DNA of 64,000 nt from NCBI GenBank assembly GCA_052033375.1, contig JBPOJQ010000013.1, positions 2,255-66,254 of the forward strand. The letters run 5' to 3'. The stretch is from Candidatus Magasanikiibacteriota bacterium. Lineage in GTDB: Bacteria; Patescibacteriota; Patescibacteriia; Magasanikbacterales; UBA922. The notes under the pieces were generated by a model. The model did not search any database, was not told the DNA's origin, and worked only from the letters and a program-made list of their open reading frames with translations. The translations under genes and the position numbers were made by a program. Each line of letters opens with the position of its first letter. The stretch's first letter is position 1. Below are positions 21,069 through 54,348 of this stretch, piece by piece.

Positions 21069-22559
21069 TTACTCTGCCTTTCTTTTTTTGAACAAAATAA
21101 ACGGAGTTTTGAGCATAATAATCAAATCAAGGAACAAGGTCCAGCGTTCGATATAGAGCACATCGAGTCTCATTTCTTCTTCGAATTCCAGATCTGACCT
21201 GCCTGAAATTTGTGAGAGTCCCGTGATTCCCGGCTTTACCGCAAACACGGTCGGATATGCATCTCGGTACAAATCTACTTCGCGCGGCTGATGCGGTCTG
21301 GGGCCCACGATACTCATAGTCCCAGCTAATACATTGAAAAACTGAGGTAATTCATCGATACTCCATTTTCTAATCCATCTCCCGACTGGCGTAATGCGTG
21401 GATCATTTCCAATTTTATAGATCGGGCCCGTGCGCGTGTTTTGTTTTTCTATCAATTGTTTTTCTCTTTTTTCAGCAAAGGTGCCTGCCCTACCAAATTG
21501 GGGACCGGTGCTATCTTTCTGATACATGGATCGGAATTTGTACGTAACAAAATCTTTTCCTTGATACCCTACCCGCTTATTTTTATACAAAATTGGACGT
21601 CCTGTCTCTATGAAAATAATCAATGCTACGAGAAGTAGTACAGGAGAAAACAGTATGATACACAGAAGACTAAAGACGATATCTGACACTCTCTTAATCA
21701 CCTTCCCCCATCCTTCGAGTGGAGTGCGTTTGAGCTCGACCATAGGCATTCCTGCGAGCGCGGTAATCGTTGTGTTCGCCGCGTACGCTGCGAACATATC
21801 TGCGCTATATTTGAACACAATATGATGACGAGTACAGTATTCAATAATTTTCAAAGCTTCTGCTTCGCGACCCCTCGGATGTGCAAATATGATTTCATCA
21901 ATTCCATGCTTCCCGAATTTTCGTGCATCAGTTTCAGTGAAATTTTTTGAAATCATGAGTACGCGATACCCCAGCTCTTTTCTGCGATCGAGCTCTTCGC
22001 CGATACGCTCAGCCACATGCTCATCCCCTACAATAATCACTTTTCGGAGACCCGCTCCCAGACGATACATCACCCCTCGAATAGCGCGCATGATAATTCT
22101 TCCGAACCCCACGTAGACAATCGTACACAGCCAGGTCACGACGAGGAGAAATCGGGATTCGAATTGTGTCGAGAAAAAAATAATCCCGAGTGCGACAAAT
22201 GCTAGCCCGACAGTCGACATCATGGCTACGCGCTTCAATATTTCGGCAAGCTTTCTATTCGGATCCGGAGTATAGAGCCCATCAAGTGCAAATATGACAA
22301 TCACCCCTATTCCGACTAGTGCTGTCCGCGCAAAAAATTCGGCGAGTGACAGATCGAATCGTATTGATCGCAAATCCACAAAAAATGGCAAAAAACGTAT
22401 GCCGTATGCTGTGACTGCCGCGAGTAAGATGAGGATGTAGTCGAGTGGTACCTGAAGCACCATGAGCATTCCTTCGGAGCGTTTCATAAGGAGAAAAATA
22501 TAGACATAGTATAGCAAAATATGGCTAAATTTCAAACTATCCAACTGTATAAAATACAT
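21069..22559 (-). CDS. Polyprenyl-phosphate glycosyl-1-phosphate transferase (WbaP/EpsB-type bacterial sugar transferase)
   Basis: 496 aa with N-terminal TM helices. The C-terminal domain carries KRVSDIVFSLL...GRPILYKNKRVGYQGKDFVTYKFRSM...SIDELPQFFNVLAGTMSIVGPRP. Confidence 0.9.
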   Translation of the reverse strand: MYFIQLDSLKFSHILLYYVYIFLLMKRSEGMLMVLQVPLDYILILLAAVTAYGIRFLPFFVDLRSIRFDLSLAEFFARTALVGIGVIVIFALDGLYTPDPNRKLAEILKRVAMMSTVGLAFVALGIIFFSTQFESRFLLVVTWLCTIVYVGFGRIIMRAIRGVMYRLGAGLRKVIIVGDEHVAERIGEELDRRKELGYRVLMISKNFTETDARKFGKHGIDEIIFAHPRGREAEALKIIEYCTRHHIVFKYSADMFAAYAANTTITALAGMPMVELKRTPLEGWGKVIKRVSDIVFSLLCIILFSPVLLLVALIIFIETGRPILYKNKRVGYQGKDFVTYKFRSMYQKDSTGPQFGRAGTFAEKREKQLIEKQNTRTGPIYKIGNDPRITPVGRWIRKWSIDELPQFFNVLAGTMSIVGPRPHQPREVDLYRDAYPTVFAVKPGITGLSQISGRSDLEFEEEMRLDVLYIERWTLFLDLIIMLKTPFILFKKRKAE

Positions 22560-22650
22560 ACTTTTACATTCCTCACTGTCCTATCTCATGCAATATCACT
22601 TATGTATTGACTTTTCTTATTCACTGTGGCATTCTATGTAAGCAAATTAA

Positions 22651-22732
22651 TGCTCAGGTGGCGAAATTGGTAGACGCACTACCTTGAGGTGGTAGCGCCG
22701 AAAGGCATGGAGGTTCGAGTCCTCTCCTGAGC
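22651..22732 (+). tRNA. tRNA-Leu (anticodon GAG)
   Basis: Acceptor GCTCAGG/CCTGAGC, anticodon stem CTACC/GGTAG with loop TTGAGGT, and a long variable arm. Confidence 0.85.
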
Positions 22733-22789
22733 ACGACCTTGAGAGACCCTGCTAGATGTCCGAGATGGATACTGCAGATGAGCTTAACA

Positions 22790-22818
22790 AAAAACACCCG
22801 AAATTGGGTGTTTTTTGT
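22790..22818 (+). terminator. Rho-independent terminator downstream of tRNA-Leu
   Basis: AAAAACACCC-GAAATT-GGGTGTTTTTTG. It lies inside the 5' end of the track ORF 22756..24336, so the real CDS start is probably downstream. Confidence 0.7.
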
Positions 22819-22869
22819 TTTACTCAAATAAATGATAATATCTATCTACGCACTATCTGTATTCCTCTT

Positions 22870-24336
22870 ATGAATGAAAAAGAAAAAACTATAAATCAAA
22901 AAATTATCATAAGTTCTGGATTAAATAAGTCAGAAAAGTATTTAGCTAAAATCTGCGGTAAAACTTTCTTATCTTTATGGAGTTATCCTAACCTATATCG
23001 CAATAAAGGAAAAGAATTATCGGATTTGCTTGTTGTTTTTGGTAATCATATTCTAATTTTTTCAGATAAATCATGTGCGTACCCAGTAAGTGAAAATCAT
23101 GAACTTAATTGGAGTCGATGGTTTAGAAGAGCTGTTGAAAAATCAGCAAAACAGTTGTGGCGGGCAGAACAATGGATTCGGCAGTACCCAAAGCAGATTT
23201 TTTTAGATCCAGAATGTACGCAACGTTTCCCATTTGATATAGATATACAAAAAACAAAAATCCACTTAATTTTAGTTGCACATGGAGTTTCTGCATCTTG
23301 CAAAAAGTATTTTAATGGTGGAAGTGGTAGTTTAATTATAAAAAACGATATTAAAAGTATTAATGAGCACACAGAGCCATTTGTTATTGGAGATCTCAAT
23401 CCTTCTAAAACTTTTATACACGTACTCGACGACATAACTCTCGATATAGTGATGAACGCACTTGATACCACATCTGATTTGGTTTCCTATTTTTCTAAAA
23501 AAGAAATTCTGCTTCGCTCAGATAAACATATAATGTATACAGGGGAAGAAGACTTACTTCCCTACTATATGACAAAAATTAAAAATGATGAACATGATTT
23601 TGTATTTCCTGAAGAATCAAATGGTATAGCGATTTTCGAAGGTGAATGGAAAAACTTTTGTAATAATCCACAAAGGAAAGCCCAATTAGAAGAAGATAAA
23701 ATAAGTTACTATTGGGATGCACTAATAGAACAATTCAATAAAAATGCTTTAAACGGCACGCAATATAATACTTCAGCAGGGGGTATAAAAGATTCTGAAA
23801 AAATAATGCGTTTCTTTGCAAGTGAAACTCGATTTCGTAGAAGAATTCTTTCAAAAACTGTTCTTGGTTTGATTGAAAAAACACCTAATGATATTTGTGG
23901 CAGAAGATTTAGTGTTCCTCTAACTAAAGATGGAACCTATTATGCTTTTATCACTTTTCCTAAAAAAAATCATCACACGGAACAACAATATCGAGCTTTT
24001 AGAAGCGAGTACTTAAAAATTTGTTGCATGGTTGTTCGCGCAGTATATCCTAATGCTAAAGATATAATTGGATTTGCAACAGAGTCTGGTAAAGAATTAA
24101 AAGGAAGATCAGAAGATGCTCTATATCTTGATGGAAGACATTGGAATGAAGGAATGCAAAAAGAAGCATTAGAGTTACAGAAGAAATTGGGAATTCTTAT
24201 GGAACCTAATTATTACAAAATGAGTGATACTGAATTTCCAGATGTTAATCCAACACAGATTCCTAAAGTTGGAAGAAATGAAAAATGCCCTTGTGGGTCA
24301 AGTAAAAAATATAAAAGATGTCACGGATTTAAATAA
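22870..24336 (+). CDS. Hypothetical protein with a C-terminal SEC-C metal-binding motif, in an AT-rich (about 28% GC) segment
   Basis: The C-terminus NEKCPCGSSKKYKRCHG is a SEC-C motif. I chose the ATG at 22870 (MNEKEK) because the annotated 22756 start would read through the tRNA terminator hairpin. GC content is clearly below neighbouring genes. Confidence 0.65.
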   Translation: MNEKEKTINQKIIISSGLNKSEKYLAKICGKTFLSLWSYPNLYRNKGKELSDLLVVFGNHILIFSDKSCAYPVSENHELNWSRWFRRAVEKSAKQLWRAEQWIRQYPKQIFLDPECTQRFPFDIDIQKTKIHLILVAHGVSASCKKYFNGGSGSLIIKNDIKSINEHTEPFVIGDLNPSKTFIHVLDDITLDIVMNALDTTSDLVSYFSKKEILLRSDKHIMYTGEEDLLPYYMTKIKNDEHDFVFPEESNGIAIFEGEWKNFCNNPQRKAQLEEDKISYYWDALIEQFNKNALNGTQYNTSAGGIKDSEKIMRFFASETRFRRRILSKTVLGLIEKTPNDICGRRFSVPLTKDGTYYAFITFPKKNHHTEQQYRAFRSEYLKICCMVVRAVYPNAKDIIGFATESGKELKGRSEDALYLDGRHWNEGMQKEALELQKKLGILMEPNYYKMSDTEFPDVNPTQIPKVGRNEKCPCGSSKKYKRCHGFK

Positions 24337-24364
24337 ATCTTTATCTTATTGCCAAAAATTTACT

Positions 24365-24787
24365 TTAAATTAAACATAATTTTTTATCTCTTAGTATTAG
24401 CCTATTTTTAACTACTTCTATAAGTTCTCTTTTCTCAAAGATCTTTCCTTCTTTCAAGATATATTTTGCATACTTCTTCATATCTAAATCTTTCTTTTTC
24501 TCTAATTCATCATTTTTTAAACCCAGAACTGCATACCTAAACTGACTATACCGATCTAGTTCTGCTTCTAATTTCTGTTTGATTCCCAGTTTATCTAGAC
24601 TCACCTTACCTATTATTTCTACTAGCTGCTTTATTACTTCGTTCTCATTCATACTCACTCCCCTGCAATTTTGATCCTTTGTTCTCGTGCACACATAGTA
24701 CACGTATCTATGAACATTCCCATTCTGCTGATGCTTGAATTTTTCATCTGCAGTAATACCTGAACCACAATTTCCACATGTCATCAT
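24365..24787 (-). pseudogene. Probable remnant of a large serine recombinase (recombinase zinc-beta-ribbon plus coiled-coil C-terminal region only)
   Basis: CGNCGSGI...YVYYVCTRTKDQNC followed by a K/E-rich helical tail matches the Zn-ribbon and coiled-coil region of large serine recombinases. No resolvase catalytic domain lies upstream. The 5' region is replaced by the 80-bp repeat. Confidence 0.45.
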
Positions 24788-24840
24788 TCTGGTGAACGCG
24801 AATTCTTTGTTCTTTTTCTTTTAGTACACGCTTCGCCTCT

Positions 24841-24919
24841 TTTACATTCAAAACCAAAGACGCTATACTTATTGACAATGCTATAAATTTGTGTAAATAT
24901 AGCGTAAAATCTTAACTTT
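24841..24919 (+). repeat. 80-bp direct repeat copy 1 (promoter plus 5' leader of secreted-protein paralog A)
   Basis: The two copies read tttacattcaaaaccaaagacgctatacttattgacaatgctataaatttgtgtaaatatagcNtaaaatcttaacttt. The only mismatch seen is G (copy 1) versus C (copy 2) at position N. It contains TTGACA and an extended -10-like TGtaaatat. Confidence 0.85.
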
Positions 24920-24920
24920 A

Positions 24921-26525
24921 TTGATTATGAACAGAAACACAAAAATATCTATTACGGCAGCAGTCGCCCTTGTACTCATTATTGGTGTTGGAATTGGATG
25001 CTACATACATAGTAAAAAAACTACTACAGTATCTACAGGACCAACAACCACCAGCACTCCAAATGTTGTGACAGATCCTACTCCAACCGCTAAAACACCA
25101 TATAACATCGGAGAATCCAGAACACTTAGCCCGATCGGCTATTCAGACTTTGATGAGTTTTTGAAAAAAGCTATTCAAAAAAAGACGGTGAAAAATACAC
25201 GCGATAATCTCAATTACACAGCATATCTCTTGAAACAAGAAGATGCAGATTTTCTTGGCTCATCACGTATTATTGTAAAAATTGATCTTGAACGAGATTA
25301 TGCACCACTTCCCTTTTTTGATACACAAATCAATGATGTAGATAGTATTGGTAATTTTCATGTAACCGACAGCGGTCTTGAACTTACGTCAAAAACACAG
25401 ACTTCTGAAGATGAACGCGCATATCTTCTTGAATTTTCACCTATCGTACTTGGAGATAATTATACTCCAGACTCACTGCGTGTAATGCGATTGGTTTCTG
25501 AATCAATCCGAAATAGCTATAAAAAAACTGTTGCTGATTTTTCTGCCGCACTTACGAAAAATGGTATTGCTAACGAATATAAAAATAATACGCTAGTGGG
25601 ATTTGATATTGGCACTATTTACCATATAACTCTTATAGATAATACAAACTATCAAATAAATGTAATGAGTCCTGATTTTAGTATTGGAATTGGCGAAGGA
25701 ATCCCTACATGGTTTACTCCTAATAAGGTAGATTTCACTGCGAGTACTGACATACTACATTCTCAATTTCTTTACCCTACTGACATCTTGTATTCTGATA
25801 AAATAACTATCGAGGGACAGCTGTCTTTTGTAATATTTACTTACTGCGGATATCCAGCATCAAATTATTGCGTACAGATTCGTACAAAAGACAGCCGAAA
25901 CATGGGATATGTAGTGAATATAGACGTTGATGATTCCTATAAAGAAAATCCTGAAATTGCGGTACAGAAAATTATAACCAGCCCATTGGTTAAAAATATA
26001 TTCTCATCAATCAATTCTCAAGAAAGTACTGCCCAGCCTACACGTGAACACGCTAAGAATGTTATTTCTGCACTTAGAAATGCTGATTTCTCACAACTCT
26101 CTACCTACACTCACCCCGAAAAAGGCATCCGTTTCTCACCATACATATATGTGCAGAAGGATTCACATCTGGTGTTTAAAGTAGATAGTATAAAAAATCT
26201 ACTGAATGATACAAAAGTATATACCTGGGGAACTTACGATGGTTCTGGATTCCCTATTGAACTAACCCCTAAAGAATATTATGATCAATTCGTATATTCT
26301 CGTGACTTTGCGAATGTAGCAAAGATTACCTATAATGATATATCCAATTATAATACCCAAAAAATACTTGAAACGTATCCACAGAGTACTATTGTGGAAT
26401 ATTATTATCCTGGCACCGATCCAAAATTCGAGGGCATGGATTGGCAAAGTTTGCGATTGGTATTTGAGGAATTTAATGGTACCTGGTATCTGGTAGGCAT
26501 TGTGCACGACGAATGGATGATCTAG
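24921..26525 (+). CDS. Membrane-anchored secreted protein, paralog A (N-terminal TM, Thr/Pro-rich linker, multi-domain ectodomain)
   Basis: 534 aa. TM segment ISITAAVALVLIIGVGIGCYI, then linker TTTVSTGPTTTSTPNVVTDPTPTAKTP. The central region NVMSPDFSIGIGEGIPTWFTPNKVDFTA is homologous to the 29310 gene. Confidence 0.8.
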   Translation: MIMNRNTKISITAAVALVLIIGVGIGCYIHSKKTTTVSTGPTTTSTPNVVTDPTPTAKTPYNIGESRTLSPIGYSDFDEFLKKAIQKKTVKNTRDNLNYTAYLLKQEDADFLGSSRIIVKIDLERDYAPLPFFDTQINDVDSIGNFHVTDSGLELTSKTQTSEDERAYLLEFSPIVLGDNYTPDSLRVMRLVSESIRNSYKKTVADFSAALTKNGIANEYKNNTLVGFDIGTIYHITLIDNTNYQINVMSPDFSIGIGEGIPTWFTPNKVDFTASTDILHSQFLYPTDILYSDKITIEGQLSFVIFTYCGYPASNYCVQIRTKDSRNMGYVVNIDVDDSYKENPEIAVQKIITSPLVKNIFSSINSQESTAQPTREHAKNVISALRNADFSQLSTYTHPEKGIRFSPYIYVQKDSHLVFKVDSIKNLLNDTKVYTWGTYDGSGFPIELTPKEYYDQFVYSRDFANVAKITYNDISNYNTQKILETYPQSTIVEYYYPGTDPKFEGMDWQSLRLVFEEFNGTWYLVGIVHDEWMI

Positions 26526-26535
26526 TATTTCCTAT

Positions 26536-27144
26536 ATGTCTACCACCCAACTCCATTTCCGTTACTCTCCCATCTACGACCGCTCTCTTGCAGCATTATC
26601 TTCTACAGAACTTTCTGACGATCAGATTTCAGAAGGTTTTTCTTTTGCCAATGATTTTGCTGCGTATTGGCAAGATAAAAACGACAAAATATTTAATTAC
26701 TATAGTGAACTAGGATTAGTGCTTGCAGATTTTTGGTTAGCATACCCGGTTCATGCACAAAAAAATATTGTTCCATTTAATGATCCTCTTACATTCTTCA
26801 TCAAAGATAATTTTGATGAATGTGCAGCAACAATTACTCATGAAATTTGTCACACGTTCTTTAGTTATTTTGCAAACAATGAACGTGCAGTAGAACTCTG
26901 GAAACCAATTGCAGAAAAATTCTCAGATGAACCAAATGACGTACAGGAACATATTTTAATTAATATGCTTGCATCTGGTGGATACTTCAGAATCTTTGAT
27001 AGTAATAAAGCTATTGAATTAATAAAAATGGAAACCGAATATTCTTCACTCGCTCGAAGCTGGAAGCTTATCTATGATGGTATTGGTGGAGATTTTGAGA
27101 AGCTTAAAGATCCTTTGGAAGCTCTCAAAATTCTTGCTACGTAA
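26536..27144 (+). CDS. Hypothetical protein with an HExxH motif (putative zinc metallopeptidase-like)
   Basis: 202 aa. ITHEICHTFF contains HExxH and is followed by an acidic helical region. Confidence 0.6.
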   Translation: MSTTQLHFRYSPIYDRSLAALSSTELSDDQISEGFSFANDFAAYWQDKNDKIFNYYSELGLVLADFWLAYPVHAQKNIVPFNDPLTFFIKDNFDECAATITHEICHTFFSYFANNERAVELWKPIAEKFSDEPNDVQEHILINMLASGGYFRIFDSNKAIELIKMETEYSSLARSWKLIYDGIGGDFEKLKDPLEALKILAT

Positions 27145-27148
27145 GACG

Positions 27149-27829
27149 TTAAATAGTTTTTCTCTTAAATTCAAAGACATAAAACATAAAAGACTTATTG
27201 TGGGCTGGTCTTTTATATACTTCTACAATTTCAAATCCATTATTTTCTGCCAAATGGAAAGGTAGGTAAATACTCAGATCAGCAAAATTTGCCCAACCGA
27301 AATAGATTCGACCACCAGGATTTAAGTATCTAGCTGCCTGGTTAAAAAACTTTTGTTTCATTAGATTATTTGGGTCCCAAAACATTTTATCGATAGCGTC
27401 CTTTGCACCATGATTGTTGTATGGTGGATTGCAGATAATAGCATCAAAGGTACCGGTAACATTTTCAAAAACATCAGACTGTAAAAACTGAATATTACTT
27501 ATTCCATTTTTCTCTGCATTCAATTTGCTGTTTTCTACCGCGCGTTCATTGATATCCACCCCTACCCCAGATTTTGCATACTGAGCAAGGTATAAACATA
27601 TTGTTCCAGTACCACATCCTATTTCTAAGAATGTTTGTCCTGGTTCCAGACATACCGATTGAGCCATAAGTTCGGTATCAACAGACGTTCTGTATACTCC
27701 ACTAAGCACTTGAATTGGAAGACCACAACACTCAATATCTAGTGGTTGCCCTGTTGTGTGTCTTTCTTGAAGTCTCTCTGTTTGAGACGGGACAGCTGGA
27801 ATATTGCTTTGCTCTAGAGTGAATTTCAT
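27149..27829 (-). CDS. Class I SAM-dependent methyltransferase with an NPPY motif (HemK/PrmC or TrmN6/methyltransferase-small-domain type)
   Basis: Motif I LEIGCGTGTICLYLAQ, acidic DIN, and NPPY (AIICNPPYNN) are present. Confidence 0.7.
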   Translation of the reverse strand: MKFTLEQSNIPAVPSQTERLQERHTTGQPLDIECCGLPIQVLSGVYRTSVDTELMAQSVCLEPGQTFLEIGCGTGTICLYLAQYAKSGVGVDINERAVENSKLNAEKNGISNIQFLQSDVFENVTGTFDAIICNPPYNNHGAKDAIDKMFWDPNNLMKQKFFNQAARYLNPGGRIYFGWANFADLSIYLPFHLAENNGFEIVEVYKRPAHNKSFMFYVFEFKRKTI

Positions 27830-27844
27830 AATTCAAAATAGTAT

Positions 27845-28078
27845 CTAAGACTTTCTCTTGAAAAAAAGGTTCTCAAGCTGCTCAAGTTCCTTTATTGGTT
27901 TTTCTTCAAAGAAACAGACGAATGATTCTTTGAGTGTTTCGTTTTCTAATACTATCTGGAATTTACCTTCATGACTAAAAATGCAATCAATTGGGAAAAA
28001 GTGATGATGCCACGGGATTCCGTTGATAGAATATGATTGGACGAGACGAATTATTTCTTCAAATTGAACAATCTTCAT
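27845..28078 (-). CDS. Small hypothetical protein
   Basis: 77 aa ORF, AT-rich, and co-directional with the neighbouring small gene. Confidence 0.4.
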   Translation of the reverse strand: MKIVQFEEIIRLVQSYSINGIPWHHHFFPIDCIFSHEGKFQIVLENETLKESFVCFFEEKPIKELEQLENLFFKRKS

Positions 28079-30027: not shown

Positions 30028-30603
30028 TTATTCTAACATTTTTCTTCGTACCAACAACAGCACCACAAAAGCTCCATTCATGATAATAAGAGAACTCGGG
30101 TATAGCCACGTGGCAAGAGAAAAGGAGTTAAGTGCGATAATTCCAAAAATCCATTTAACACTACTGAACGTATACATAATCGCTGTTTCTTCGTGTGGAT
30201 AGTGATAACCCTTTCGGAAGGTTGGCAAGAAGCCGATTGCGTCAGTAATCGTAATTAATACTACTGACCATGTAGGATCACTGGTAAATTTCCACAGTAA
30301 CATCGATACACATGCAGAGGCTAAACAAAGCCAATCAAACAAACTAAATGTTCGTTTTCCTTTAAATAACGCTAGAAAGAAAATAGTGAAACAAACTAAC
30401 GACGAAAATCCAGTTACCCATGCTCCAGCTCCTGCGTTTTCGGTAACTTGCGCAGCAAATGCGATACCGGTTAGTATTCCCCATACGAGCCAAGAAAATG
30501 CATGCGGTTTTGTCTGATTTTTAATAATATCCCGAAAATATGGAACATAGCCAATGAATGCAAGTATCGTAGCAATATATCCAAATGCAATTTTATAGTC
30601 CAT
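30028..30603 (-). CDS. Polytopic membrane protein with two PQ-loop/MtN3-like repeats (SWEET-like), paralog of 42056..42649
   Basis: 191 aa with 6-7 TM helices. The first repeat is GYVPYFRDIIKNQTKPHAFSWLVWG and the second is GFLPTFRKGYHYPHEETAIMY. Clear similarity to the 42056 gene. Confidence 0.55.
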   Translation of the reverse strand: MDYKIAFGYIATILAFIGYVPYFRDIIKNQTKPHAFSWLVWGILTGIAFAAQVTENAGAGAWVTGFSSLVCFTIFFLALFKGKRTFSLFDWLCLASACVSMLLWKFTSDPTWSVVLITITDAIGFLPTFRKGYHYPHEETAIMYTFSSVKWIFGIIALNSFSLATWLYPSSLIIMNGAFVVLLLVRRKMLE

Positions 30604-38202: not shown

Positions 38203-38682
38203 TTACACCATCTCCTCGGTAGTTTCTTCAGGCATCAATTCTATTTTTGATTTGGTTCGAGTAGTCGTTCGTTTTCTTTCTGGACGAATATCTTCGATTT
38301 CAATATCAGTCATGGTCACTTTCCCATGTATAATAGCTCCTGACTCCACTTCGAGTACTCTGCAATAAATATCCCCGAGAACGCGCGCACTTTGTGTCAA
38401 TTCCAATTTTTCTTCTACTCGCATATTACCCTTTACTTCCCCGGCGACGAGGGCATCATTTGCTTTTACATTTGCCAATATTTTTGCGCCTTCTTCAACC
38501 GTCAAAAGTCTCCCTGTCTGCACATTTCCTGATACAGTACCTTTGACTAGGATATTCCCTTCTGAAGAGAAGTCCCCTTCGACTACTACTGACGGACCAA
38601 CGACGGTCTCGATTTCATCAGCTTGAGTACGTATAGTATTCATTGGTTGTGGTGTAGGCATATCTGAAGAACTTTTAAACAT
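38203..38682 (-). CDS. Bactofilin (polymer-forming cytoskeletal protein, DUF583)
   Basis: Repetitive beta-helix pattern VVGPSVVVEGDFSSEGNILVKGTVSGNV...ANDALVAGEVKGNMRVEEKLEL and a charged C-terminal tail are present. Confidence 0.85.
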   Translation of the reverse strand: MFKSSSDMPTPQPMNTIRTQADEIETVVGPSVVVEGDFSSEGNILVKGTVSGNVQTGRLLTVEEGAKILANVKANDALVAGEVKGNMRVEEKLELTQSARVLGDIYCRVLEVESGAIIHGKVTMTDIEIEDIRPERKRTTTRTKSKIELMPEETTEEMV

Positions 38683-38746: not shown

Positions 38747-40414
38747 TTATACATGTGCCTGCTTCTCAGGAACCCAAAAACCAAATTCACTTCCCTTGCC
38801 CAGACCTGCGCTTTGCGCCCATACATGCCCCCCATGTGCTTCAATAAACATACGACAAACGTAGATTCCAAGACCAGTGCCATTAACATTAGTTCCTTTC
38901 ACATTTTCTCCTCGATAAAATTTTTGGAAGAAATTTGCTTCATCCATATGCCCAAAGCCCACACCCTGATCTTTTACCCGTACATTCACCCCGCCATTTC
39001 CCATTTCTGTCGATACTACGATCTCTTTCCCATCTGTTCCGTATTTTATAGCGTTATCAATAAAGTTAAAAATCACATTTCTAATCTTTTCTGAATCCAT
39101 ATTTACTTTCTGAATCCGCGGTGAAGTATGCATTACAATCGTCAAACCTGCCTCTGCCGCACGTGGCTGCAATTCCTGTACCACATCCTCAACAATAGTA
39201 TTGATATCCATTTTTTCAAAAACATACTTTGTTCTCCCCTGCTCAATACGTGTAATATCTAAAAATTCATCAACCAACTTTACGAGTCGTTCATTACTCA
39301 CATCCATATCATGAAGGACACTTTCCAATTTTTTACTTGGCTTGCCATATGCACCATCCTCAATCAATTCAATATACCCTTTAATAATTGAAAGTGGGGT
39401 TCGCAACTGATGAGATGCGATTGAAAGAAACTCTGTTTTTTGCTGATCGAGTTCTTTTAATCTCACGTTTGCTTTTTCAAGTGAACGTGCGAGCTCAGTC
39501 ATTTCCTCACGACGCCTAACATCACGATGTACTCCAAAAACAAGGAGTATTCCCACAATCGTCGTAAATACTAGAGTAATAATGGTAATAAGTCTTGATA
39601 CTGTGTTTTGTTGTAAAAATATAAGTGCAAATTCGGCAAGCCAAAGTGCGCTTACCAACAATATCGATCCTGCAACCTTAATATTAAATGTTCGAAACCT
39701 TACAATTGTGTAGCCTAAAAACCCAATAAATACAGGCACTGAAAATAACCCAATTTGTGCAAAATTCCAATCTTCAGTAAAGCTACTTACGATATTGCCC
39801 CATGAAAAAGCAAGAAGGAAAAACACGATCCCCGTTGCAAGAAGTACTAATTCTCGACGCTTTTGTTTATCCAGGGTCTGTCTATGCCATTTGATAGCTA
39901 ATACTATCAGAAATATCGTATAAAATAACTCAACAGGATAAGTAGAATAAATAGAAACAGCGCCTTCTATACTAAGACAGCTATCTAAATCAAACCCTGG
40001 CAATGCAAGCGAGGTTGGCAACGTAAGGGCTATAAAAATACATGGTAAAAAGAATAGCAGCTTAGTTCTCAACCTAATCTCTTCTTTTTTAATTAACGTA
40101 TAAAATAAATATAGCCCACCAAGATGTACTAATGGCTCAAAAAGAATTTGTAGGGACCACACAAACATGATTGCATCGCTACTATTAGAAGCCCAAAATA
40201 TAGAATCAAGAAAAACCCAAATAAAGAAAAAAAATAGCGTCAAAAATAAAATAACATTTGGTCTGGAACGTCTATTAGCAAACAATACAAAAAGTCCAAC
40301 TATCAGTGCAACAGCTAGTACGGTGAAATGCGAGTAGTATACTAATGGCGGAACATTTTCAGAAAATAGTAAAAAACTAGGAGTTGGGTACTGACAAAAT
40401 GTTGGTGCTGCCAT
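38747..40414 (-). CDS. Sensor histidine kinase with a polytopic N-terminal membrane domain
   Basis: About 8 TM helices, then HisKA (SHQLRTPLSIIKGY) and HATPase_c (GTGLGIYVCRMFIEAHGG). No cognate response regulator is adjacent. Confidence 0.9.
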   Translation of the reverse strand: MAAPTFCQYPTPSFLLFSENVPPLVYYSHFTVLAVALIVGLFVLFANRRSRPNVILFLTLFFFFIWVFLDSIFWASNSSDAIMFVWSLQILFEPLVHLGGLYLFYTLIKKEEIRLRTKLLFFLPCIFIALTLPTSLALPGFDLDSCLSIEGAVSIYSTYPVELFYTIFLIVLAIKWHRQTLDKQKRRELVLLATGIVFFLLAFSWGNIVSSFTEDWNFAQIGLFSVPVFIGFLGYTIVRFRTFNIKVAGSILLVSALWLAEFALIFLQQNTVSRLITIITLVFTTIVGILLVFGVHRDVRRREEMTELARSLEKANVRLKELDQQKTEFLSIASHQLRTPLSIIKGYIELIEDGAYGKPSKKLESVLHDMDVSNERLVKLVDEFLDITRIEQGRTKYVFEKMDINTIVEDVVQELQPRAAEAGLTIVMHTSPRIQKVNMDSEKIRNVIFNFIDNAIKYGTDGKEIVVSTEMGNGGVNVRVKDQGVGFGHMDEANFFQKFYRGENVKGTNVNGTGLGIYVCRMFIEAHGGHVWAQSAGLGKGSEFGFWVPEKQAHV

Positions 40415-40417
40415 ATA

Positions 40418-40921
40418 TCACGTAAGTTTCTTGAGATATGATGATAGATAAGGAAAATATTTCTTTTTTTCTTTGCTTGTCAATTGTGAAAATGAAGGTA
40501 TTTTTCCACGACATTTTGCAGATCCACATTTGCATGGAATAGTAGCCTCAACCGCTTTTTCAGACCAAGTAAACTCGGTCATATAATATCCATACACTAT
40601 TTCCTCACCTGATTTGATCTCTCGTAAAGCGAACAGTGTTGGGAATCCATTCTCACGTGTCTTGACATAACAATTCGGTTCACATGAATGGTTCCAATAC
40701 TTTCCAGTCCATTTCGATGGAATGATGTGCGTTTTCAGTCCTATTTGTATTGAAAAATTTGAGGTTTGCTGATCAGATAACTTACCATACCCATGTGATA
40801 CCACTTCACCAGGCATTATATTTTTTAAAGCAAAAATAGCAAAACCATACCCTTTCGGACTTCGTCCACATCTAACTATTTTTTTATTTTCCCTGCTAAC
40901 GCTAGCCAACGCTTCTTTCAT
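40418..40921 (-). CDS. SET-domain protein (putative protein-lysine N-methyltransferase)
   Basis: NHSCEPNC and EIVYGY are SET motifs. The post-SET Cys cluster is CKCGSAKCRG. It ends 4 nt upstream of the histidine kinase gene. Confidence 0.8.
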   Translation of the reverse strand: MKEALASVSRENKKIVRCGRSPKGYGFAIFALKNIMPGEVVSHGYGKLSDQQTSNFSIQIGLKTHIIPSKWTGKYWNHSCEPNCYVKTRENGFPTLFALREIKSGEEIVYGYYMTEFTWSEKAVEATIPCKCGSAKCRGKIPSFSQLTSKEKKKYFPYLSSYLKKLT

Positions 40922-41212
40922 ATTTTTATTTATTTTTTGTTAAATCATCATTCCCTAGTCACTGTAACAACTACTTATCCGCCAGATTCTACCGCATTTG
41001 AACCCACCCCCTCACTAGAAGTCACATAATAGTCATGTCGAATATAGATTCTATAGTAGACTAAAGCTACAATAACAAACAAAAAAATAAACAAATATAA
41101 AATAAAATTTTTACTAGAAGACTCTTCGAATTTATTCTGTTCCATATACTATGCAAGGGATTATACATTTATTTTCTAAAAAATAAAAGTATTTAAACTT
41201 TCACACGTTCAC

Positions 41213-42046
41213 TTATTTTTCAAAATAAGCTTTAAAATTTTTATAACCTGTTCCAAATTTATATTTTACATGAATTCTGACTACATCATTTTTTTGAACA
41301 GAACGTTCCTCTAAAGGAATAATTACTGGTGCATTAAGCGCTTTAGTGTCTTCCACTGTCTTAGTACCTAGAATTGATTTACTCTCCAAAAGAATACTAT
41401 TAATTTTTCCTTTTTTTACTACCTTAAATTCAACAACCACATCACACTGTTCTTTATATGGATGTGAAAAATCAATCTTATTCAACAATTCTTTTTTTGC
41501 CATCTTACTTTTAATTGGATTATACTCCAGCCATTTCCATAAATGATTTACCATAGGAAATAAGTGCCCACAAACTTCAAAAGATGTGTCTACAGGTGTA
41601 ATGTATGTCTCTTGCACCCCTGGAATAAAAATTGTGCTTTTGTGTATATTCTTATGTCTATGTAGATTATTTATTGCCTGCACTTGATGTTCATCAACTA
41701 TTCCCGTGGTTAACATTTCAGAAATAACGATATCAAATTTTTCCTTTAAAGAAATTTTTTTTGCGTCATTTACAATCATTTTAATCTTATTCTTTAACCC
41801 ATTCACCTCAATATTCTTCTTCGCAATGCTCGCAATAAAAGGATCGTACTCTACGCAATACACTTGTTTTGCTCCAGCTTTAGCTGCAGCAATTGCCATA
41901 ATACCTGAACCAGTTCCTAAGTCTATTACCACACTTTCTTTCGTGACGACTTTATTAATAGCATCAACAAAGGCAGTGGTCCTCTTGCTATCTACAAGAC
42001 ATTGGAAAACAAAATCTACTGAACTAAATGCTTTATCTTCTGACAT
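41213..42046 (-). CDS. PRMT-like class I SAM-dependent methyltransferase (protein arginine N-methyltransferase fold)
   Basis: Motif I VVIDLGTGSGIMAIAAAKAGAKQVYCVE. FDIVISEMLTTGIVDE is a double-E loop. HLWKW is a THW-like loop. Order and spacing follow the PRMT core. Confidence 0.6.
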   Translation of the reverse strand: MSEDKAFSSVDFVFQCLVDSKRTTAFVDAINKVVTKESVVIDLGTGSGIMAIAAAKAGAKQVYCVEYDPFIASIAKKNIEVNGLKNKIKMIVNDAKKISLKEKFDIVISEMLTTGIVDEHQVQAINNLHRHKNIHKSTIFIPGVQETYITPVDTSFEVCGHLFPMVNHLWKWLEYNPIKSKMAKKELLNKIDFSHPYKEQCDVVVEFKVVKKGKINSILLESKSILGTKTVEDTKALNAPVIIPLEERSVQKNDVVRIHVKYKFGTGYKNFKAYFEK

Positions 42047-42055
42047 ACTGTTATT

Positions 42056-42649
42056 TTATTTTTTAATAAATGCTCTATTTTTATAAAACTTTCCCATTAC
42101 TAACGATAATAGTATAACTAGGTTTCCAAAAAACATATATATAGGGTAAACACTTAGTTCAAAGGACCATGACGCCAGTGCAAATATATTTATTAAACTA
42201 CCCAAAACTATAAGTAACCAAGATAATAAAAACTCTTCATGGGGCTTTTGAAGTGCATGTCGAACTGTAGGAAAAACACCACATACATCAATTAATAGAC
42301 TAAAGAGTAATGCGTTAACGGGGTTTTTTGTTACAAGCCATAAAATTATCCCTGCAACTGCGCCAATCATGCACATTTTATCTAACACATTCCATTTAAT
42401 ATATCCCGATCTTATTGAAAATGCCACAATCAACAAATCCTGTATTACATACACTAAAGGTACCCAAATCGTTGTTCGCGCTCCTGACTCATAGTAGCTT
42501 ACTAGAACTAGTGTATTTACAGAGGTCCAGATAATCCAAGACGCTATATTTGGTTTAATTTTTTTTTGAAAAACCAAATAAATATAAGGCAAAAATGCTA
42601 CTAATGAGACTAGTCCAGCAATTTGCCCTAAGATTATCTGTAAATTCAT
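42056..42649 (-). CDS. Polytopic membrane protein with two PQ-loop/MtN3-like repeats, paralog of 30028..30603
   Basis: AFLPYIYLVFQKKIKPNIASWIIW and GVFPTVRHALQKPHEEFLLSW align with the 30028 gene. Confidence 0.55.
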   Translation of the reverse strand: MNLQIILGQIAGLVSLVAFLPYIYLVFQKKIKPNIASWIIWTSVNTLVLVSYYESGARTTIWVPLVYVIQDLLIVAFSIRSGYIKWNVLDKMCMIGAVAGIILWLVTKNPVNALLFSLLIDVCGVFPTVRHALQKPHEEFLLSWLLIVLGSLINIFALASWSFELSVYPIYMFFGNLVILLSLVMGKFYKNRAFIKK

Positions 42650-42684: not shown

Positions 42685-43167
42685 TTATTTTTTTAGACGG
42701 TACCACACCACACTTCCAAACATGGTTGTCGACATTGCAGCCGAGAGCATACAATACGGGCAGACCGTGTATAGGATAAATAGTTGTAGGTAGACAAGAT
42801 AGAGACTGGTCAAAAATCCAAATGTAATGATTCCCTGCAATAGATGCCAGAGACGTATATTACGCACCCGATGAAGTTGGAATACAGTAATGCCGATAAC
42901 GGTATAGTACAATAATCCAAGATACGCGAGAGGAATACCCAATACTTCAGAATATATGCTCTGGAGAACAATATTACAGCTCCCCGGTGATCCTACGATG
43001 CAATTGATTGTACCATCCCCCCCAAACGTACCAATCATATGTTCAATTGAGAGATACAATGCGTCGAGGAATCCAATCCCAGCACATATGATGATTATAC
43101 GAAATAACCAGGTAGGTACTCGCGCCTCACGGACATCAGTAATTAATTGTTTTAGTATAGAAAACAT
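42685..43167 (-). CDS. Vitamin K epoxide reductase (VKOR) family protein
   Basis: Four TMs. Loop Cys pair CIVGSPGSC and active-site CPYC are present. Confidence 0.8.
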   Translation of the reverse strand: MFSILKQLITDVREARVPTWLFRIIIICAGIGFLDALYLSIEHMIGTFGGDGTINCIVGSPGSCNIVLQSIYSEVLGIPLAYLGLLYYTVIGITVFQLHRVRNIRLWHLLQGIITFGFLTSLYLVYLQLFILYTVCPYCMLSAAMSTTMFGSVVWYRLKK

Positions 43168-51152: not shown

Positions 51153-52730
51153 TTATATCAAACTTCTCCCCGTCATCTCAGGCGGTTGTTCGATGCCAAG
51201 AATGGAGAGCATCGTAGGGGCCACATCTGATAAAATTCCAACCGGATGCATCAAGCTCAAATCCCCTTCTGGAGGATCGCCTGTCGGACCTGCCTTACCT
51301 CGAAATTCATTACCAATAATCAGGAATGGTACAGGATTATTACTGTGCTCTTTATCCTGTTCACCTGTTTTCAAATTAATTACTTCTTCAGCATTTCCAT
51401 GATCGGCGGTAATCAATAACACCCCACCTTTTGCCTCTACGTATTCAGCTATTTTACCCAAACTACGATCAATCGTCTCACAGCCTACGATAGTCGCCTC
51501 AAGATTCCCCGTGTGTCCTACCATATCTGCATTCGCAAAATTGACCAAAATCACGTCATACGTATCAGACTCAATTGCAGCGATAACTTTCTTAGTCACT
51601 TCAGACGCGGACATTTCTGGTGCTTTATCATACGAGGACACATTGGGGGATGGAATGATTGCACGCTCTTCACCCTTAAACGGCTCCTCGACAGTACCAT
51701 TGAGAAAAAAAGTAATATGCGCATATTTTTCAGTTTCTGCTGCATGAAACTGCGTGAGTCCTGCTTTACTTATCACCTCAGCAAGACAATTATGCACCAC
51801 AATTGGCGGATATGCTACCACGACCGGAATTTCTTTTTCATATTCAGTCATAGTGACAAATAACAAATCGGTCACATACTCACGCTTAAATTTATCAAAT
51901 CCCGGCAATACAAATGCCTTGGTCAACTGTCGTGCACGATCAGGACGGAAATTAAAGAAAATTACGGCATCACCTTTTTCAATTTGTGCGGTAGGCTTGC
52001 CTTCTTTCCCAATCACAGTTGGAATAAACTCTTCATCATATACTTGTTTTTCATATGAGGCAGCAATTGCATCGACAGGATCCGTACTGTACGTTTCAGA
52101 AATTCCTTCAGCCATCGCTCGATATGCGCGTTCAATTCTATCCCATCGATTATCGCGATCCATCGCATAATATCGACCAGCGAGAGAAGCAATTTGTCCC
52201 ACTCCAATTTTCTTCATTTTTTCCTCAAGTTTGAGAACAAAATCTGTCGCACTATTGTAGAGCGTGTCTCGTCCATCGAGAATAACATGTACAAAGACTT
52301 TTTTTATTTTGTTTTTCTTTGCAAATTCTAACAGCGCGTACAAGTGATCTTGGCTTGCATGTACATTACCAGGACTTACCAATCCAATGAGGTGCAGTGC
52401 AGATTTGTGAGTCAAGACATGTTCTTTTGCAGAAAGAAATGCTTTGTTCTGAAAAAATGTACCGTCCACAATTGTTTTATTGATTCGAGGAAATGTCTGA
52501 TAATATACACGTCCTGCACCGATATTCAAATGCCCTACTTCGGAATTTCCCATTTCACCATACGAAAGTCCAACCTCATTTCCAGAAGCATATAACGACA
52601 TTGCAGGGTATTCTTCGATAAAACGATCCATGTGCGGAGTGTTTGCACGATAGACCGCATTCCCCTCACTCGGAGGCGCGACTCCCCACCCATCAAGAAT
52701 TGCGAGTACAACAGGTTTTGGCCTTGGCAT
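51153..52730 (-). CDS. gpmI: 2,3-bisphosphoglycerate-independent phosphoglycerate mutase (copy 1)
   Basis: N-terminus ILDGWG. SEVGHLNIGAGR matches the iPGM metal-binding and Ser-phosphatase motifs. Length 525 aa. Confidence 0.9.
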   Translation of the reverse strand: MPRPKPVVLAILDGWGVAPPSEGNAVYRANTPHMDRFIEEYPAMSLYASGNEVGLSYGEMGNSEVGHLNIGAGRVYYQTFPRINKTIVDGTFFQNKAFLSAKEHVLTHKSALHLIGLVSPGNVHASQDHLYALLEFAKKNKIKKVFVHVILDGRDTLYNSATDFVLKLEEKMKKIGVGQIASLAGRYYAMDRDNRWDRIERAYRAMAEGISETYSTDPVDAIAASYEKQVYDEEFIPTVIGKEGKPTAQIEKGDAVIFFNFRPDRARQLTKAFVLPGFDKFKREYVTDLLFVTMTEYEKEIPVVVAYPPIVVHNCLAEVISKAGLTQFHAAETEKYAHITFFLNGTVEEPFKGEERAIIPSPNVSSYDKAPEMSASEVTKKVIAAIESDTYDVILVNFANADMVGHTGNLEATIVGCETIDRSLGKIAEYVEAKGGVLLITADHGNAEEVINLKTGEQDKEHSNNPVPFLIIGNEFRGKAGPTGDPPEGDLSLMHPVGILSDVAPTMLSILGIEQPPEMTGRSLI

Positions 52731-52737
52731 AGTAAAA

Positions 52738-54348
52738 TTAAAACAAAGATTTCCCAGTCATATCTTTCGGCTGTGTACCACCTACCATCTTTATTATCGT
52801 AGGCGCAACATCAGCGAGTATACCATCTTTTAATCTAATCCCTTTGGTACTATTTCTAATCAATATACAGGGCACCGGATTCAAACTGTGTTCAGTATCA
52901 ACTTCCCCAGTCTCAATGTTTTTCATTTCTTCAGCATTTCCATGATCAGCGACAATCAACACTTGTCCATCACGCGAGAGCACCTCTTCAACAATTTTTT
53001 CCACACAGTCATCGACAACAGACACGGCAATTTTTGCTGCTTTGAAATTCCCGGTATGACCTACCATGTCCGCATTTGCAAAATTGATACAATAAAAATC
53101 ATACGCCTGTTTTTTTATCAATTTTATTACCGTATTCGTTATTTTCCCTGCAGCCATTTCGGGCTTGGTATCATGATGTGCGACAGTTGTTGATTCTATT
53201 TTCATTCGATCTTCCCCATTTACAGGATCAGAGTACCCGCCGTTGATAAAATACGTCACGTGGGCATATTTTTCTGACTCAGCAATATAGAGCTGGGTCA
53301 TATGTGCCAAGGTGAGTGGTAATGTATTGTATACATCGGGCGACGGAAATGCAGTCAAAATTTTTTCCAGATCGGGACCAAAATCAGTCAAAGCGACAAA
53401 CCTAATATTTTTGGGAACCTTGGTACGCCTAAAAGAACGTGGATTTTTCTGATTAAAATCATCCTGTACAAAAGCCTTGGTAATTTGTCTGGCGCGATCA
53501 GATCGAGCATTGAAAAAAATAATAACATCTGTATCTTCAATAGTGCCTACGGGTTTTCCATAATCGTCGACTATGACTGAAGGTGAGATAAATTCGTCAG
53601 TCTCTCCTCGATTATACGCCTGTTCAATCGCCTCTTCTGCATTTTTTACCTGATGTCCTCGCCCGAGAGTCATCGCTTCATATGCAGCTTGGGTTCGATC
53701 CCATATTTTATTTCGATCCATGCCATAGAGTCTCCCCATAATTGTGGCTATTTTTTCGGTATGGAGCATGTGTCCTCGCAGTTGGTGCAAGAACGTCGAT
53801 GCGGCATGCGGACCCGAATCTCGTCCATCAGTAAAGAGGTGCAGGTATACTTTATCAATACCCTCTCTCCGACATAATTCCAACAATGCATAGACATGTT
53901 CTGGATAGGAATGAGCGCTATTCTCATCAGTGAGCAACCCCATCAGATGTACGGCTGAATTGTATTTTTTTGTATGGAATAATGCTTGCCTAAATGCTTC
54001 ATTTTTGAAAAAAGTTCCATCATGAATAGTATCTGAAATAGAAACCAAATCTTGTTTTACAATTCTTCCAGCACCAATATTCAAATGTCCTGCTTCAGAA
54101 TTTCCAATTTGACCAGAGAATAACCCCACGTGTTCACCGTAGGTTTTGAGCTTTGACCATGGATATTTTTTGAGATATCCGAATATATGAGGTGCAGTAT
54201 GCGAAGTGATTGCATTACCCTCACGATCTTCGGGCGCCAAACCAAAGCCATCAAGAATAATAAGCGCCGTTGGAGCATGCATGTGCTGGGTAGATTGTTG
54301 TTTTCCTTTTGTTTTTTGCTTGAGTGACATACTACGTTCAAATTTCAA
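52738..54348 (-). CDS. gpmI: 2,3-bisphosphoglycerate-independent phosphoglycerate mutase (copy 2, tandem paralog)
   Basis: ILDGFG and SEAGHLNIGAGR are present, over a full-length 536 aa. Confidence 0.88.
   Translation of the reverse strand: MKFERSMSLKQKTKGKQQSTQHMHAPTALIILDGFGLAPEDREGNAITSHTAPHIFGYLKKYPWSKLKTYGEHVGLFSGQIGNSEAGHLNIGAGRIVKQDLVSISDTIHDGTFFKNEAFRQALFHTKKYNSAVHLMGLLTDENSAHSYPEHVYALLELCRREGIDKVYLHLFTDGRDSGPHAASTFLHQLRGHMLHTEKIATIMGRLYGMDRNKIWDRTQAAYEAMTLGRGHQVKNAEEAIEQAYNRGETDEFISPSVIVDDYGKPVGTIEDTDVIIFFNARSDRARQITKAFVQDDFNQKNPRSFRRTKVPKNIRFVALTDFGPDLEKILTAFPSPDVYNTLPLTLAHMTQLYIAESEKYAHVTYFINGGYSDPVNGEDRMKIESTTVAHHDTKPEMAAGKITNTVIKLIKKQAYDFYCINFANADMVGHTGNFKAAKIAVSVVDDCVEKIVEEVLSRDGQVLIVADHGNAEEMKNIETGEVDTEHSLNPVPCILIRNSTKGIRLKDGILADVAPTIIKMVGGTQPKDMTGKSLF

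Follow-up and report, generated by a model that had tools for sequence, protein, structure and literature searches.

The genes of a 167-amino-acid (aa) SET-domain protein, a putative methyltransferase, and of a nine-transmembrane (TM) sensor histidine kinase stand next to each other in 64 kb of DNA from a Candidatus Magasanikiibacteriota bacterium (contig JBPOJQ010000013.1; the whole stretch analysed is hereafter called the window). They belong to a recurrent gene module, found in many ultra-small bacteria of the Candidate Phyla Radiation (CPR), that consists of a seven-TM (7-TM) protein or an EamA transporter, one or two N-methyltransferases, a sensor kinase and, often, a SpeD-like decarboxylase, an agmatinase or an agmatine deiminase. 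We tentatively propose, at a probability of roughly 45%, that the module methylates, transports and senses a cationic amine, and that its SET enzyme acts on a small amine and is not a host-directed effector. No description of such a module was found in the literature on SET proteins of bacteria, of the CPR or of Patescibacteria, or on SET proteins with polyamine genes; the parts come from known families (SET, class I histidine kinase, PQ-loop fold), and the combination appears to be new.

Conservation of the SET-kinase pair

In the window the SET gene (40418-40921, minus strand) ends just ahead of the kinase gene (38747-40414, minus strand), as had been stated in a first-pass annotation made from the letters of this DNA; the gap given there as 4 nt measures 3 nt (TGA-tat-ATG). 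There is no terminator-like site between the two genes, and co-transcription is plausible. Uniqueness of the pairing to this contig, which by the annotation would have refuted its reading, is not what the comparison shows, as the pairing recurs at many loci. On the SET side, phmmer searches of the open reading frames (ORFs) of 93 loci, together with recorded gene calls, gave 22 non-redundant loci of the close SET family (compared neighbourhood loci are labelled L###, and their ORFs were called mechanically). A histidine kinase lies at most three genes downstream of SET in 13 of the 22; six have none and three end earlier, which makes 13 of 19 assessable loci. On the side of the kinase, the sensor-domain alignment was used to scan metagenomes and yielded 80 loci whose ORFs were searched with family hidden Markov models, and 50 were kept once duplicates and loci with <1.2 kb upstream had been removed; these loci are skewed towards a few groundwater projects. 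Upstream of the kinase, SET is present in 30 of the 50, a PRMT-like methyltransferase in seven, an NNMT/PNMT/TEMT-family methyltransferase in four, and some methyltransferase in 36. A PQ-like 7-TM protein lies upstream (within 3.5 kb) in 29, an EamA transporter in nine, and one or the other in 38; a SpeD-like decarboxylase is found in 13 and an arginase-family enzyme in three. At least one module gene precedes the kinase in 47 of the 50 loci, and representative gene calls were confirmed by Pfam. SET is the immediate upstream neighbour of 48 of the 95 kinase genes of this family found across all loci, with the same orientation in 36 cases and the opposite one in 12; the same-strand gaps range from -32 to +189 nt and are tight (-32 to +11 nt) in 13 loci.

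Two arrangements of the pair were recognized. Type 1 loci (the window, L001, L012, L014, L015 and L025, as well as L053 and L085, which are more distant) have, next after SET, a kinase of 555-578 aa whose polytopic sensor is the same throughout. In type 2 loci (L002, L003, L005, L021, L022, L023 and L028), a 275-aa membrane protein, a soluble protein of about 93 aa and a soluble kinase come after SET. The 275-aa protein (seven to eight TM segments) and the ~93-aa protein, neither of which has a Pfam family, always occur together between SET and kinase in type 2, and the pair was seen in L002-L005, L017, L021-L023, L026-L028 and L096. An origin of the type 1 kinase as a fusion of the 275-aa protein with a soluble kinase is unsupported (hhalign against the sensor domain, probability 0.3%). 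One kinase subgroup has EamA immediately upstream in place of 7-TM and SET (L131, L133-L136, L139, L141, L142, L144, L145, L153, L167, L171 and L173), and the order EamA-SET-kinase occurs in L166 and L168.

At least four kinds of flanking context surround the SET-kinase pairs. Because the flanks vary from group to group, simple inheritance of gene order does not account for the pairing. This bears on the view that SET is a general protein methyltransferase, acting for example on nucleoid-associated or ribosomal proteins, that stands beside the kinase through shared regulation or inherited order. Close homologues do occur alone in unrelated contexts (L016, L020 and L024), small bacterial SET proteins are widespread with varied neighbours, and archaeal and chlamydial SET proteins methylate chromatin-like proteins. 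However, the association spans varied flanks, several SET clades, both orientations, a fusion and a duplicated pair (the last two are described below), so that inherited gene order is insufficient to explain it, and we regard a general protein methyltransferase as quite improbable.

The SET protein

The 167-aa protein matches the Pfam SET family (PF00856) with 45.2 bits against a cut-off of 22.4. It carries NHSCEPNC at residues 77-84, EIVYGY at residues 107-112 and a post-SET CxCx4C cluster (C130, C132 and C137), all of which the first-pass annotation had pointed out. An alignment of 26 homologues shows N77, H78, C80, E107, Y112, C130 and C132, which belong to the NHSC, EEI-x-Y and CxCx4C motifs, to be invariant, and C137 nearly so. 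About 30 homologues have 49-68% identity, every one of them being about 167 aa long, and the genome records with such close homologues are those of Kerfeld-, Nomura-, Vogel-, Zambryski- and Wildermuthbacteria and Saccharibacteria. A minimal SET type of 131 aa gave no match in a search of PDB sequences. On a contig binned as Chloracidobacterium (L019, 7986-9609), a CPR-type SET gene (52% identity) is accompanied by a CPR-type SpeD-like gene; this could reflect horizontal transfer or a binning error.

The closest solved sequences are KMT2/MLL SET domains (E 4e-14 for KMT2D), and BurB matches too (E 9e-7), the CPR SET family lying nearer to KMT2D than to BurB. BurB is a 172-aa bacterial SET enzyme that converts methionine to S-methylmethionine (SMM) (PMC12542666). 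The similarity to KMT2 does not discriminate between classes of substrate, given that the same profiles also pick up the small-molecule enzyme BurB. Since BurB methylates a free amino acid, action of a small bacterial SET protein on a free metabolite has a precedent. We refer to the protein as a putative S-adenosylmethionine-dependent methyltransferase; the annotation's label 'lysine methyltransferase' is likewise putative.

Bacterial SET proteins had been described in the annotation as uncommon and usually effector-like. Two peptide patterns alone retrieved 201 relatives in genomes of many free-living phyla, and this description is not supported. Pathogen SET effectors do exist, and the protein might in principle be secreted to methylate host proteins, with its expression tied to envelope sensing, which was the second option offered in the annotation. 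Against this, a hydropathy scan found no hydrophobic N-terminus, signal peptide or TM segment in the protein, which is thus predicted to be cytoplasmic; no secretion genes are present among the 40 window proteins scanned with Pfam (type III/IV signals lie outside this check). Furthermore, a SET domain is fused to the cytoplasmic end of a membrane protein in one homologue (P0060, see below), and the gene is conserved in a chromosomal module of metabolic and sensory character, with a transporter-like protein and metabolic enzymes. We give a secreted effector hardly any credence.

The sensor histidine kinase

The 555-aa kinase comprises a sensor domain (residues 1 to about 300; nt 39503-40414, minus strand) and a dimerization and histidine phosphotransfer (DHp) plus catalytic and ATP-binding (CA) part (nt 38747-39502, minus strand) with HisKA (61.5 bits), HATPase_c (77.9 bits) and an HK853-like fold. 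A hydropathy scan and a full-length AlphaFold2 model (mean predicted local distance difference test, pLDDT, 92.4) agree on nine TM helices, in keeping with the polytopic histidine kinase reported in the annotation. The protein contains no PAS or HAMP domain; in the model, TM9 continues unbroken, as helix 271-352, into the DHp helix that bears H335, and a short beta-hairpin (residues 140-149) lies within an outer loop of the sensor. The sensor domain alone retrieved 636 cluster representatives at E<=1e-3, nearly all of them 540-580 aa long, and a common architecture is therefore indicated. An exhaustive search was required to recover this family, a word-index search having given nine matches only. 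The sensor domain of the family has no match in Pfam or NCBIfam.

Among 86 family members, C7, W86 and C146 of the sensor are invariant and Y27, W66, W74, E150 and Y159 near-invariant; in a sensor-only alignment of 20 sequences, Y27, W66, E93, E150 and Y159 are invariant too. From the positive-inside topology, these residues are predicted in outer loops or close to where the TM helices reach the outer face. A mix of cysteine, tryptophan, tyrosine and glutamate is typical of ammonium-cation binding sites, and C7 and C146 could form an outer disulfide. In the window's clade, a gene for the disulfide-forming protein VKOR (42685-43167) adjoins the module; this may be coincidental. In the kinase boxes (H, N, G1, F and G2) H335, N454 and G484 are invariant, and D482, G486, F496, G514 and G516 near-invariant.

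The kinase had been called an orphan, and neither phmmer searches with CheY, PhoB, Spo0F and NarL (E<=10; every window ORF of 50 aa or more) nor the Pfam scans, which covered 40 proteins, detected a response regulator in the 64-kb window. Just 5 of 95 family members have one within 3 kb of the kinase gene, and in L022 one directly follows a type 2 kinase. A link between response regulators and distant SET genes was also considered and dropped, the regulators appearing no more often near such genes than a rough estimate of chance would give.

The 7-TM protein and the second methyltransferase

The commonest neighbour of SET is a membrane protein of about 195 aa, encoded just upstream in 13 of 21 assessable close-family loci. 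In the window it is a 197-aa putative transporter (42056-42649, minus strand), whose AlphaFold2 model (pLDDT 93.5) has seven helices in a 3+1+3 arrangement, a PQ-loop/cystinosin-like fold. The best Foldseek matches of the model are cystinosin and the KDEL receptor (probability 0.99, TM-score 0.54-0.61, with weak E values of 0.14-0.4). The window protein has no Pfam match, none of 17 family members matches the Pfam PQ-loop/MtN3 families even at E<=10, and a search of PDB sequences with the family gave no match. The family comprises at least 639 proteins of CPR bacteria and DPANN archaea. Judged by loop charges and the helix bounds of the model, the N-terminus is external and the C-terminus cytoplasmic. 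In agreement with the PQ-loop fold, the protein has two internal repeats whose cytoplasmic loops contain P-x-I...K...P motifs, and K and P residues of the TM1-TM2 loop are near-invariant (consensus GKTKPSR; in the window, KKIKPN). The window encodes another paralogue, of the commoner GKTKPH type (191 aa; 30028-30603, minus strand), which does not adjoin any methyltransferase gene and whose neighbours have no clear Pfam family.

Two loci tie the 7-TM protein and SET together closely. P0060 (L094, 6001-6906) is a natural fusion in which a minimal SET domain follows the 7-TM domain on its cytoplasmic C-terminal end, and L023 contains a duplicated 7TM-SET pair. The SET part of P0060 has NHSDNPN, the usual tyrosines being replaced, and a second 7-TM paralogue comes next in that locus.

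Between the 7-TM gene and SET the window encodes a 277-aa class I methyltransferase (41213-42046, minus strand; Pfam PrmA, 72 bits). Its best solved relatives are PRMT7, PRMT6 and CARM1 (E ~1e-15), the alignment covering the double-E loop, and it carries the double-E-loop-like ISEMLTTGIVDE. In L025 and L097 and in the seven metagenome loci counted above, the gene immediately ahead of a kinase of this family encodes a homologue. A PRMT-like gene adjoining a SET gene is unusual in bacteria.

These observations bear on the main alternative to the amine proposal, namely that SET is a protein lysine methyltransferase acting on another protein of the module, either on the basic cytoplasmic loop of the 7-TM protein or on the kinase, and tuning transport or signalling in the manner of chemotaxis receptor methylation. 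Several features are consistent with it: the KMT2-like sequence with a full post-SET cluster, the PRMT-like companion, the fusion of SET to the cytoplasmic C-terminus of a 7-TM homologue, the tight or overlapping spacing of SET and kinase in 13 loci, and the near-invariant K and P of the TM1-TM2 loop. However, no demethylase or CheB-like partner was seen, the similarity to KMT2 is undiscriminating, as BurB is among the same matches, and the companion enzymes described in the next section fit this possibility poorly. We consider it unlikely, if worth keeping in mind.

Amine-metabolism genes

The methyltransferase position of the module is filled by different enzymes. The SET proteins in it come from at least three separate SET clades (in a rough neighbour-joining tree), PRMT-like enzymes take it in other loci, and in L096, L113, L116, L117 and L121, though not in the window, the position is occupied by NNMT/PNMT/TEMT-family enzymes. 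Characterised members of that family act on small molecules, including decarboxylated amino acids, so that their standing in for SET speaks against a protein substrate. Two methyltransferases per module are present in the window, L025, L085, L096, L097, L103, L106, L110, L116, L117 and L121, which suggests a pathway more than a regulatory mark, and the links to decarboxylases and agmatinases likewise suit a pathway better than the modification of a module protein.

A gene of the SpeD-like (AdoMet_dc) family lies near SET in about 8 of the 22 close-family loci. An arginase-family gene is found 5 nt ahead of SET in L053, and one directly before the kinase in L129. The locus L096 combines genes for a CN-hydrolase, an agmatine deiminase, EamA, the kinase, a 7-TM protein, two NNMT-like enzymes, a SpeD-like enzyme and the 275-aa and 93-aa proteins. 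The SpeD-like proteins of CPR modules have HTFP..DVYTC and a KDPGGW insertion, compared with HTWPE..FTCG in homologues linked to SpeE. Genes of the HTFP..DVYTC type occur in L002, L003, L005, L012, L019, L022, L023, L025, L027, L053 and L097, with no SpeE nearby. Many SpeD homologues of CPR bacteria and DPANN archaea are reported to have turned into ornithine or arginine decarboxylases (PMC10407285). By their motifs the CPR SpeD-like enzymes of the module are candidate basic-amino-acid decarboxylases evolved from SpeD.

SET genes are also connected with polyamine-type genes outside the CPR module. Small SET proteins of a distant clade (27-32% identity) are encoded at or near the end of strings of SpeD, SpeE and saccharopine-dehydrogenase-like genes in eight Omnitrophota-type loci (L037, L038, L040, L054, L063, L075, L079 and L088; e.g. 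L054, 5683-8471). The full string of SpeD, SpeE, saccharopine-dehydrogenase-like gene and SET is present in L038, L040, L054, L063, L079 and L088, and L063 adds a BpsA-like gene. No published description of such strings was found in the literature on SET with spermidine synthase or S-adenosylmethionine decarboxylase. Taken together, the replacement of SET by other enzymes, the presence of two methyltransferases, the amine-pathway genes and the Omnitrophota SET operons favour a small cationic amine over a protein as the substrate.

Another amine-related context was seen in L009 (900-7750), in which a close SET homologue without a kinase lies between a PotD-like solute-binding protein and a MatE exporter, and near an amine oxidase, a phosphatidylserine-decarboxylase-family enzyme and a faint DDAH-like match.

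An amine lipid, such as phosphatidylethanolamine, an ornithine lipid or a lysyl lipid, might also be N-methylated by a SET enzyme held by the 7-TM protein, with the kinase sensing the state of the envelope. The membrane-tethered SET domain of P0060, the phosphatidylserine decarboxylase in L009, a DAGK-type lipid kinase near the module in the window's clade and a kinase that senses within or at the membrane would all agree with this. However, lipid genes are not conserved neighbours beyond single clades, and the conserved companions are solute-carrier-like proteins and enzymes that act in the metabolism of soluble amines, which makes a lipid substrate very unlikely.

Proposed function

From the domain identities, folds, topology and gene associations given above, we infer a substrate, a direction of transport, a sensed ligand and a kinase output as follows. 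The pathway would start from a basic amino acid or from the amine formed by its decarboxylation, such as agmatine, putrescine or a related diamine; the SpeD-like pyruvoyl decarboxylase and ureohydrolases, whose genes are part of the module in many genomes, would provide it. This compound would be N-methylated by the methyltransferases of the module, which in the window are SET and the PRMT-like enzyme; the SET substrate would be a primary amine, chemically like the side chain of lysine, and SET would probably be active at the cytoplasmic face of the 7-TM protein. The PQ-loop-like 7-TM protein would move the substrate or the product across the membrane. The nine-TM kinase would detect the amine, or the state of the transporter, at the outer face of the membrane, and its output would pass through a response regulator encoded elsewhere. 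The methylation-linked signalling suggested in the annotation thus survives loosely, in the form of an amine-methylation module that bears its own sensor kinase.

A more specific form of this proposal is speculative, and we think it improbable: SET and the PRMT-like enzyme may methylate the two ends of one molecule, and the N-methylated polyamine may be exported by the PQ-loop-like protein and sensed outside by the kinase, as a metabolite signal of these ultra-small episymbionts. Agmatine would be the obvious candidate, because its two ends are a primary amine as in lysine and a guanidinium as in arginine; a different diamine made by the decarboxylase is also possible.

Several points weigh against the amine proposal. 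By sequence SET is closest to protein lysine methyltransferases of the KMT2 type, and the PRMT and PrmA relatives of the 277-aa enzyme are protein methyltransferases. No decarboxylase or ureohydrolase stands next to the module in the window itself, and the candidate assignment of the CPR SpeD-like enzymes as arginine or ornithine decarboxylases is drawn solely from motif differences. The putative transporter role of the 7-TM protein derives from fold similarity with weak Foldseek E values, and the KDEL receptor, which has the same fold, is a receptor and not a carrier. No SET was detected in 20 of the 50 kinase loci, EamA being upstream in nine of the 50, and close-family SET genes occur alone or without the kinase in L006, L009, L016, L019, L020 and L024. 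The functional roles of all parts of the module are deduced from gene context and structure prediction.

If the amine proposal is correct, SET and PRMT-type enzymes, which are usually read as chromatin or effector enzymes, would move into amine metabolism, with BurB as the sole precedent. The sensor-kinase family (636 representatives) and the 7-TM family (at least 639 proteins) would gain a first functional context, and the module hints at novel methylated polyamines in CPR bacteria and Omnitrophota. Methylation of both ends of an amine would, if true, make small-molecule enzymes of two classic 'histone-code' families here, and would likewise explain the SpeD-SpeE-dehydrogenase-SET operons of Omnitrophota. 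These results also advise caution against the default annotation of bacterial SET genes as effectors.

Other features of the window

The window resembles an ordinary chromosome of a CPR/Patescibacteria-type bacterium, with aminoacyl-tRNA synthetases, glycolysis genes, a glycosyltransferase cluster and RNA polymerase. The G+C content from the 7-TM gene through the kinase is 0.32-0.37, compared with a window mean of 0.41. Downstream of the kinase lies a gene for a 159-aa bactofilin (38203-38682, minus strand; Pfam Bactofilin, 89.6 bits), in the place reported by the annotation. A bactofilin also follows the kinase in L001, L014 and L015, and not in the other module contexts. Since the bactofilin, DAGK and VKOR neighbours are kept only within the window's clade, they were treated as synteny, and the bactofilin probably does not belong to the module. 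A 56-aa ORF with one TM helix (40975-41145, minus strand), which may encode a small membrane peptide, lies in the 290 nt that precede SET; the evidence is weak, and small ORFs in the matching place of L001, L012 and L053 resemble it weakly (E 2e-4 to 7e-4).

A second region of low G+C content (22000-28000; 0.34-0.37 compared with 0.41) may be foreign DNA; it codes for a 526-aa protein, in which a C-terminal SEC-C motif is the only one found, and a 534-aa protein without a Pfam match. Two paralogues of cofactor-independent phosphoglycerate mutase are arranged in tandem (51153-52730 and 52738-54348, minus strand) beside enolase, PGK and GAPDH.

Comparison with known systems

The nearest precedent is BurB/MSMT of Burkholderia thailandensis and Streptomyces mobaraensis, which, like the window's SET protein, is a stand-alone SET enzyme of about 170 aa; BurB works in a small-molecule pathway beside a decarboxylase step, its downstream partners BurI, BurD and BurE being homologues of SMM decarboxylase, aminotransferase and dehydrogenase (PMC12542666). 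BurB differs in methylating a thioether sulfur. The companions in the CPR module also differ, being a pyruvoyl SpeD-like decarboxylase, ureohydrolases, a 7-TM protein and a kinase, with no genes of the BurI, BurD or BurE type.

The NHSCxPN motif, the EE(L/I)TYxY motif and the zinc cluster CxCx4C are common to the SET protein and KMT2/MLL enzymes. In contrast to these enzymes, the SET protein has 167 aa without partner-binding domains, a shorter SET-I insert and a conserved C-terminal extension of about 30 aa, and it is found in a bacterial, membrane-linked genomic setting in which a histone-type substrate is not evident. The small-molecule N-methyltransferases PNMT, INMT and NNMT have the class I Rossmann fold, unlike the SET fold of the window's enzyme; PNMT and INMT methylate amines derived from amino-acid decarboxylation.

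The DHp and CA core of the kinase resembles HK853 of the Thermotoga maritima HK853-RR468 system (30% identity, TM-score about 0.75 on the target) and has all the catalytic boxes, whereas the nine-TM sensor, the lack of PAS and HAMP domains and the last TM helix that runs straight into DHp set it apart. The 7-TM protein has seven helices in the same arrangement as the PQ-loop carriers cystinosin and PQLC2 and the KDEL receptor; it differs from PQ-loop carriers in having no Pfam PQ-loop match and in the replacement of the PQ dipeptide by P-Y and P-T. As for chemotaxis adaptation, none of the CheR, CheB and MCP families was present in the Pfam scans of the module or the window.

In the CadC-LysP-CadBA and AdiAC systems of Escherichia coli, a basic-amino-acid decarboxylase, a carrier and a membrane sensor are encoded together. 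By analogy, the CPR module would follow the same logic of decarboxylase, carrier and sensor, although all the protein families differ; it adds one or two N-methyltransferases, and has a histidine kinase instead of a ToxR-like regulator.

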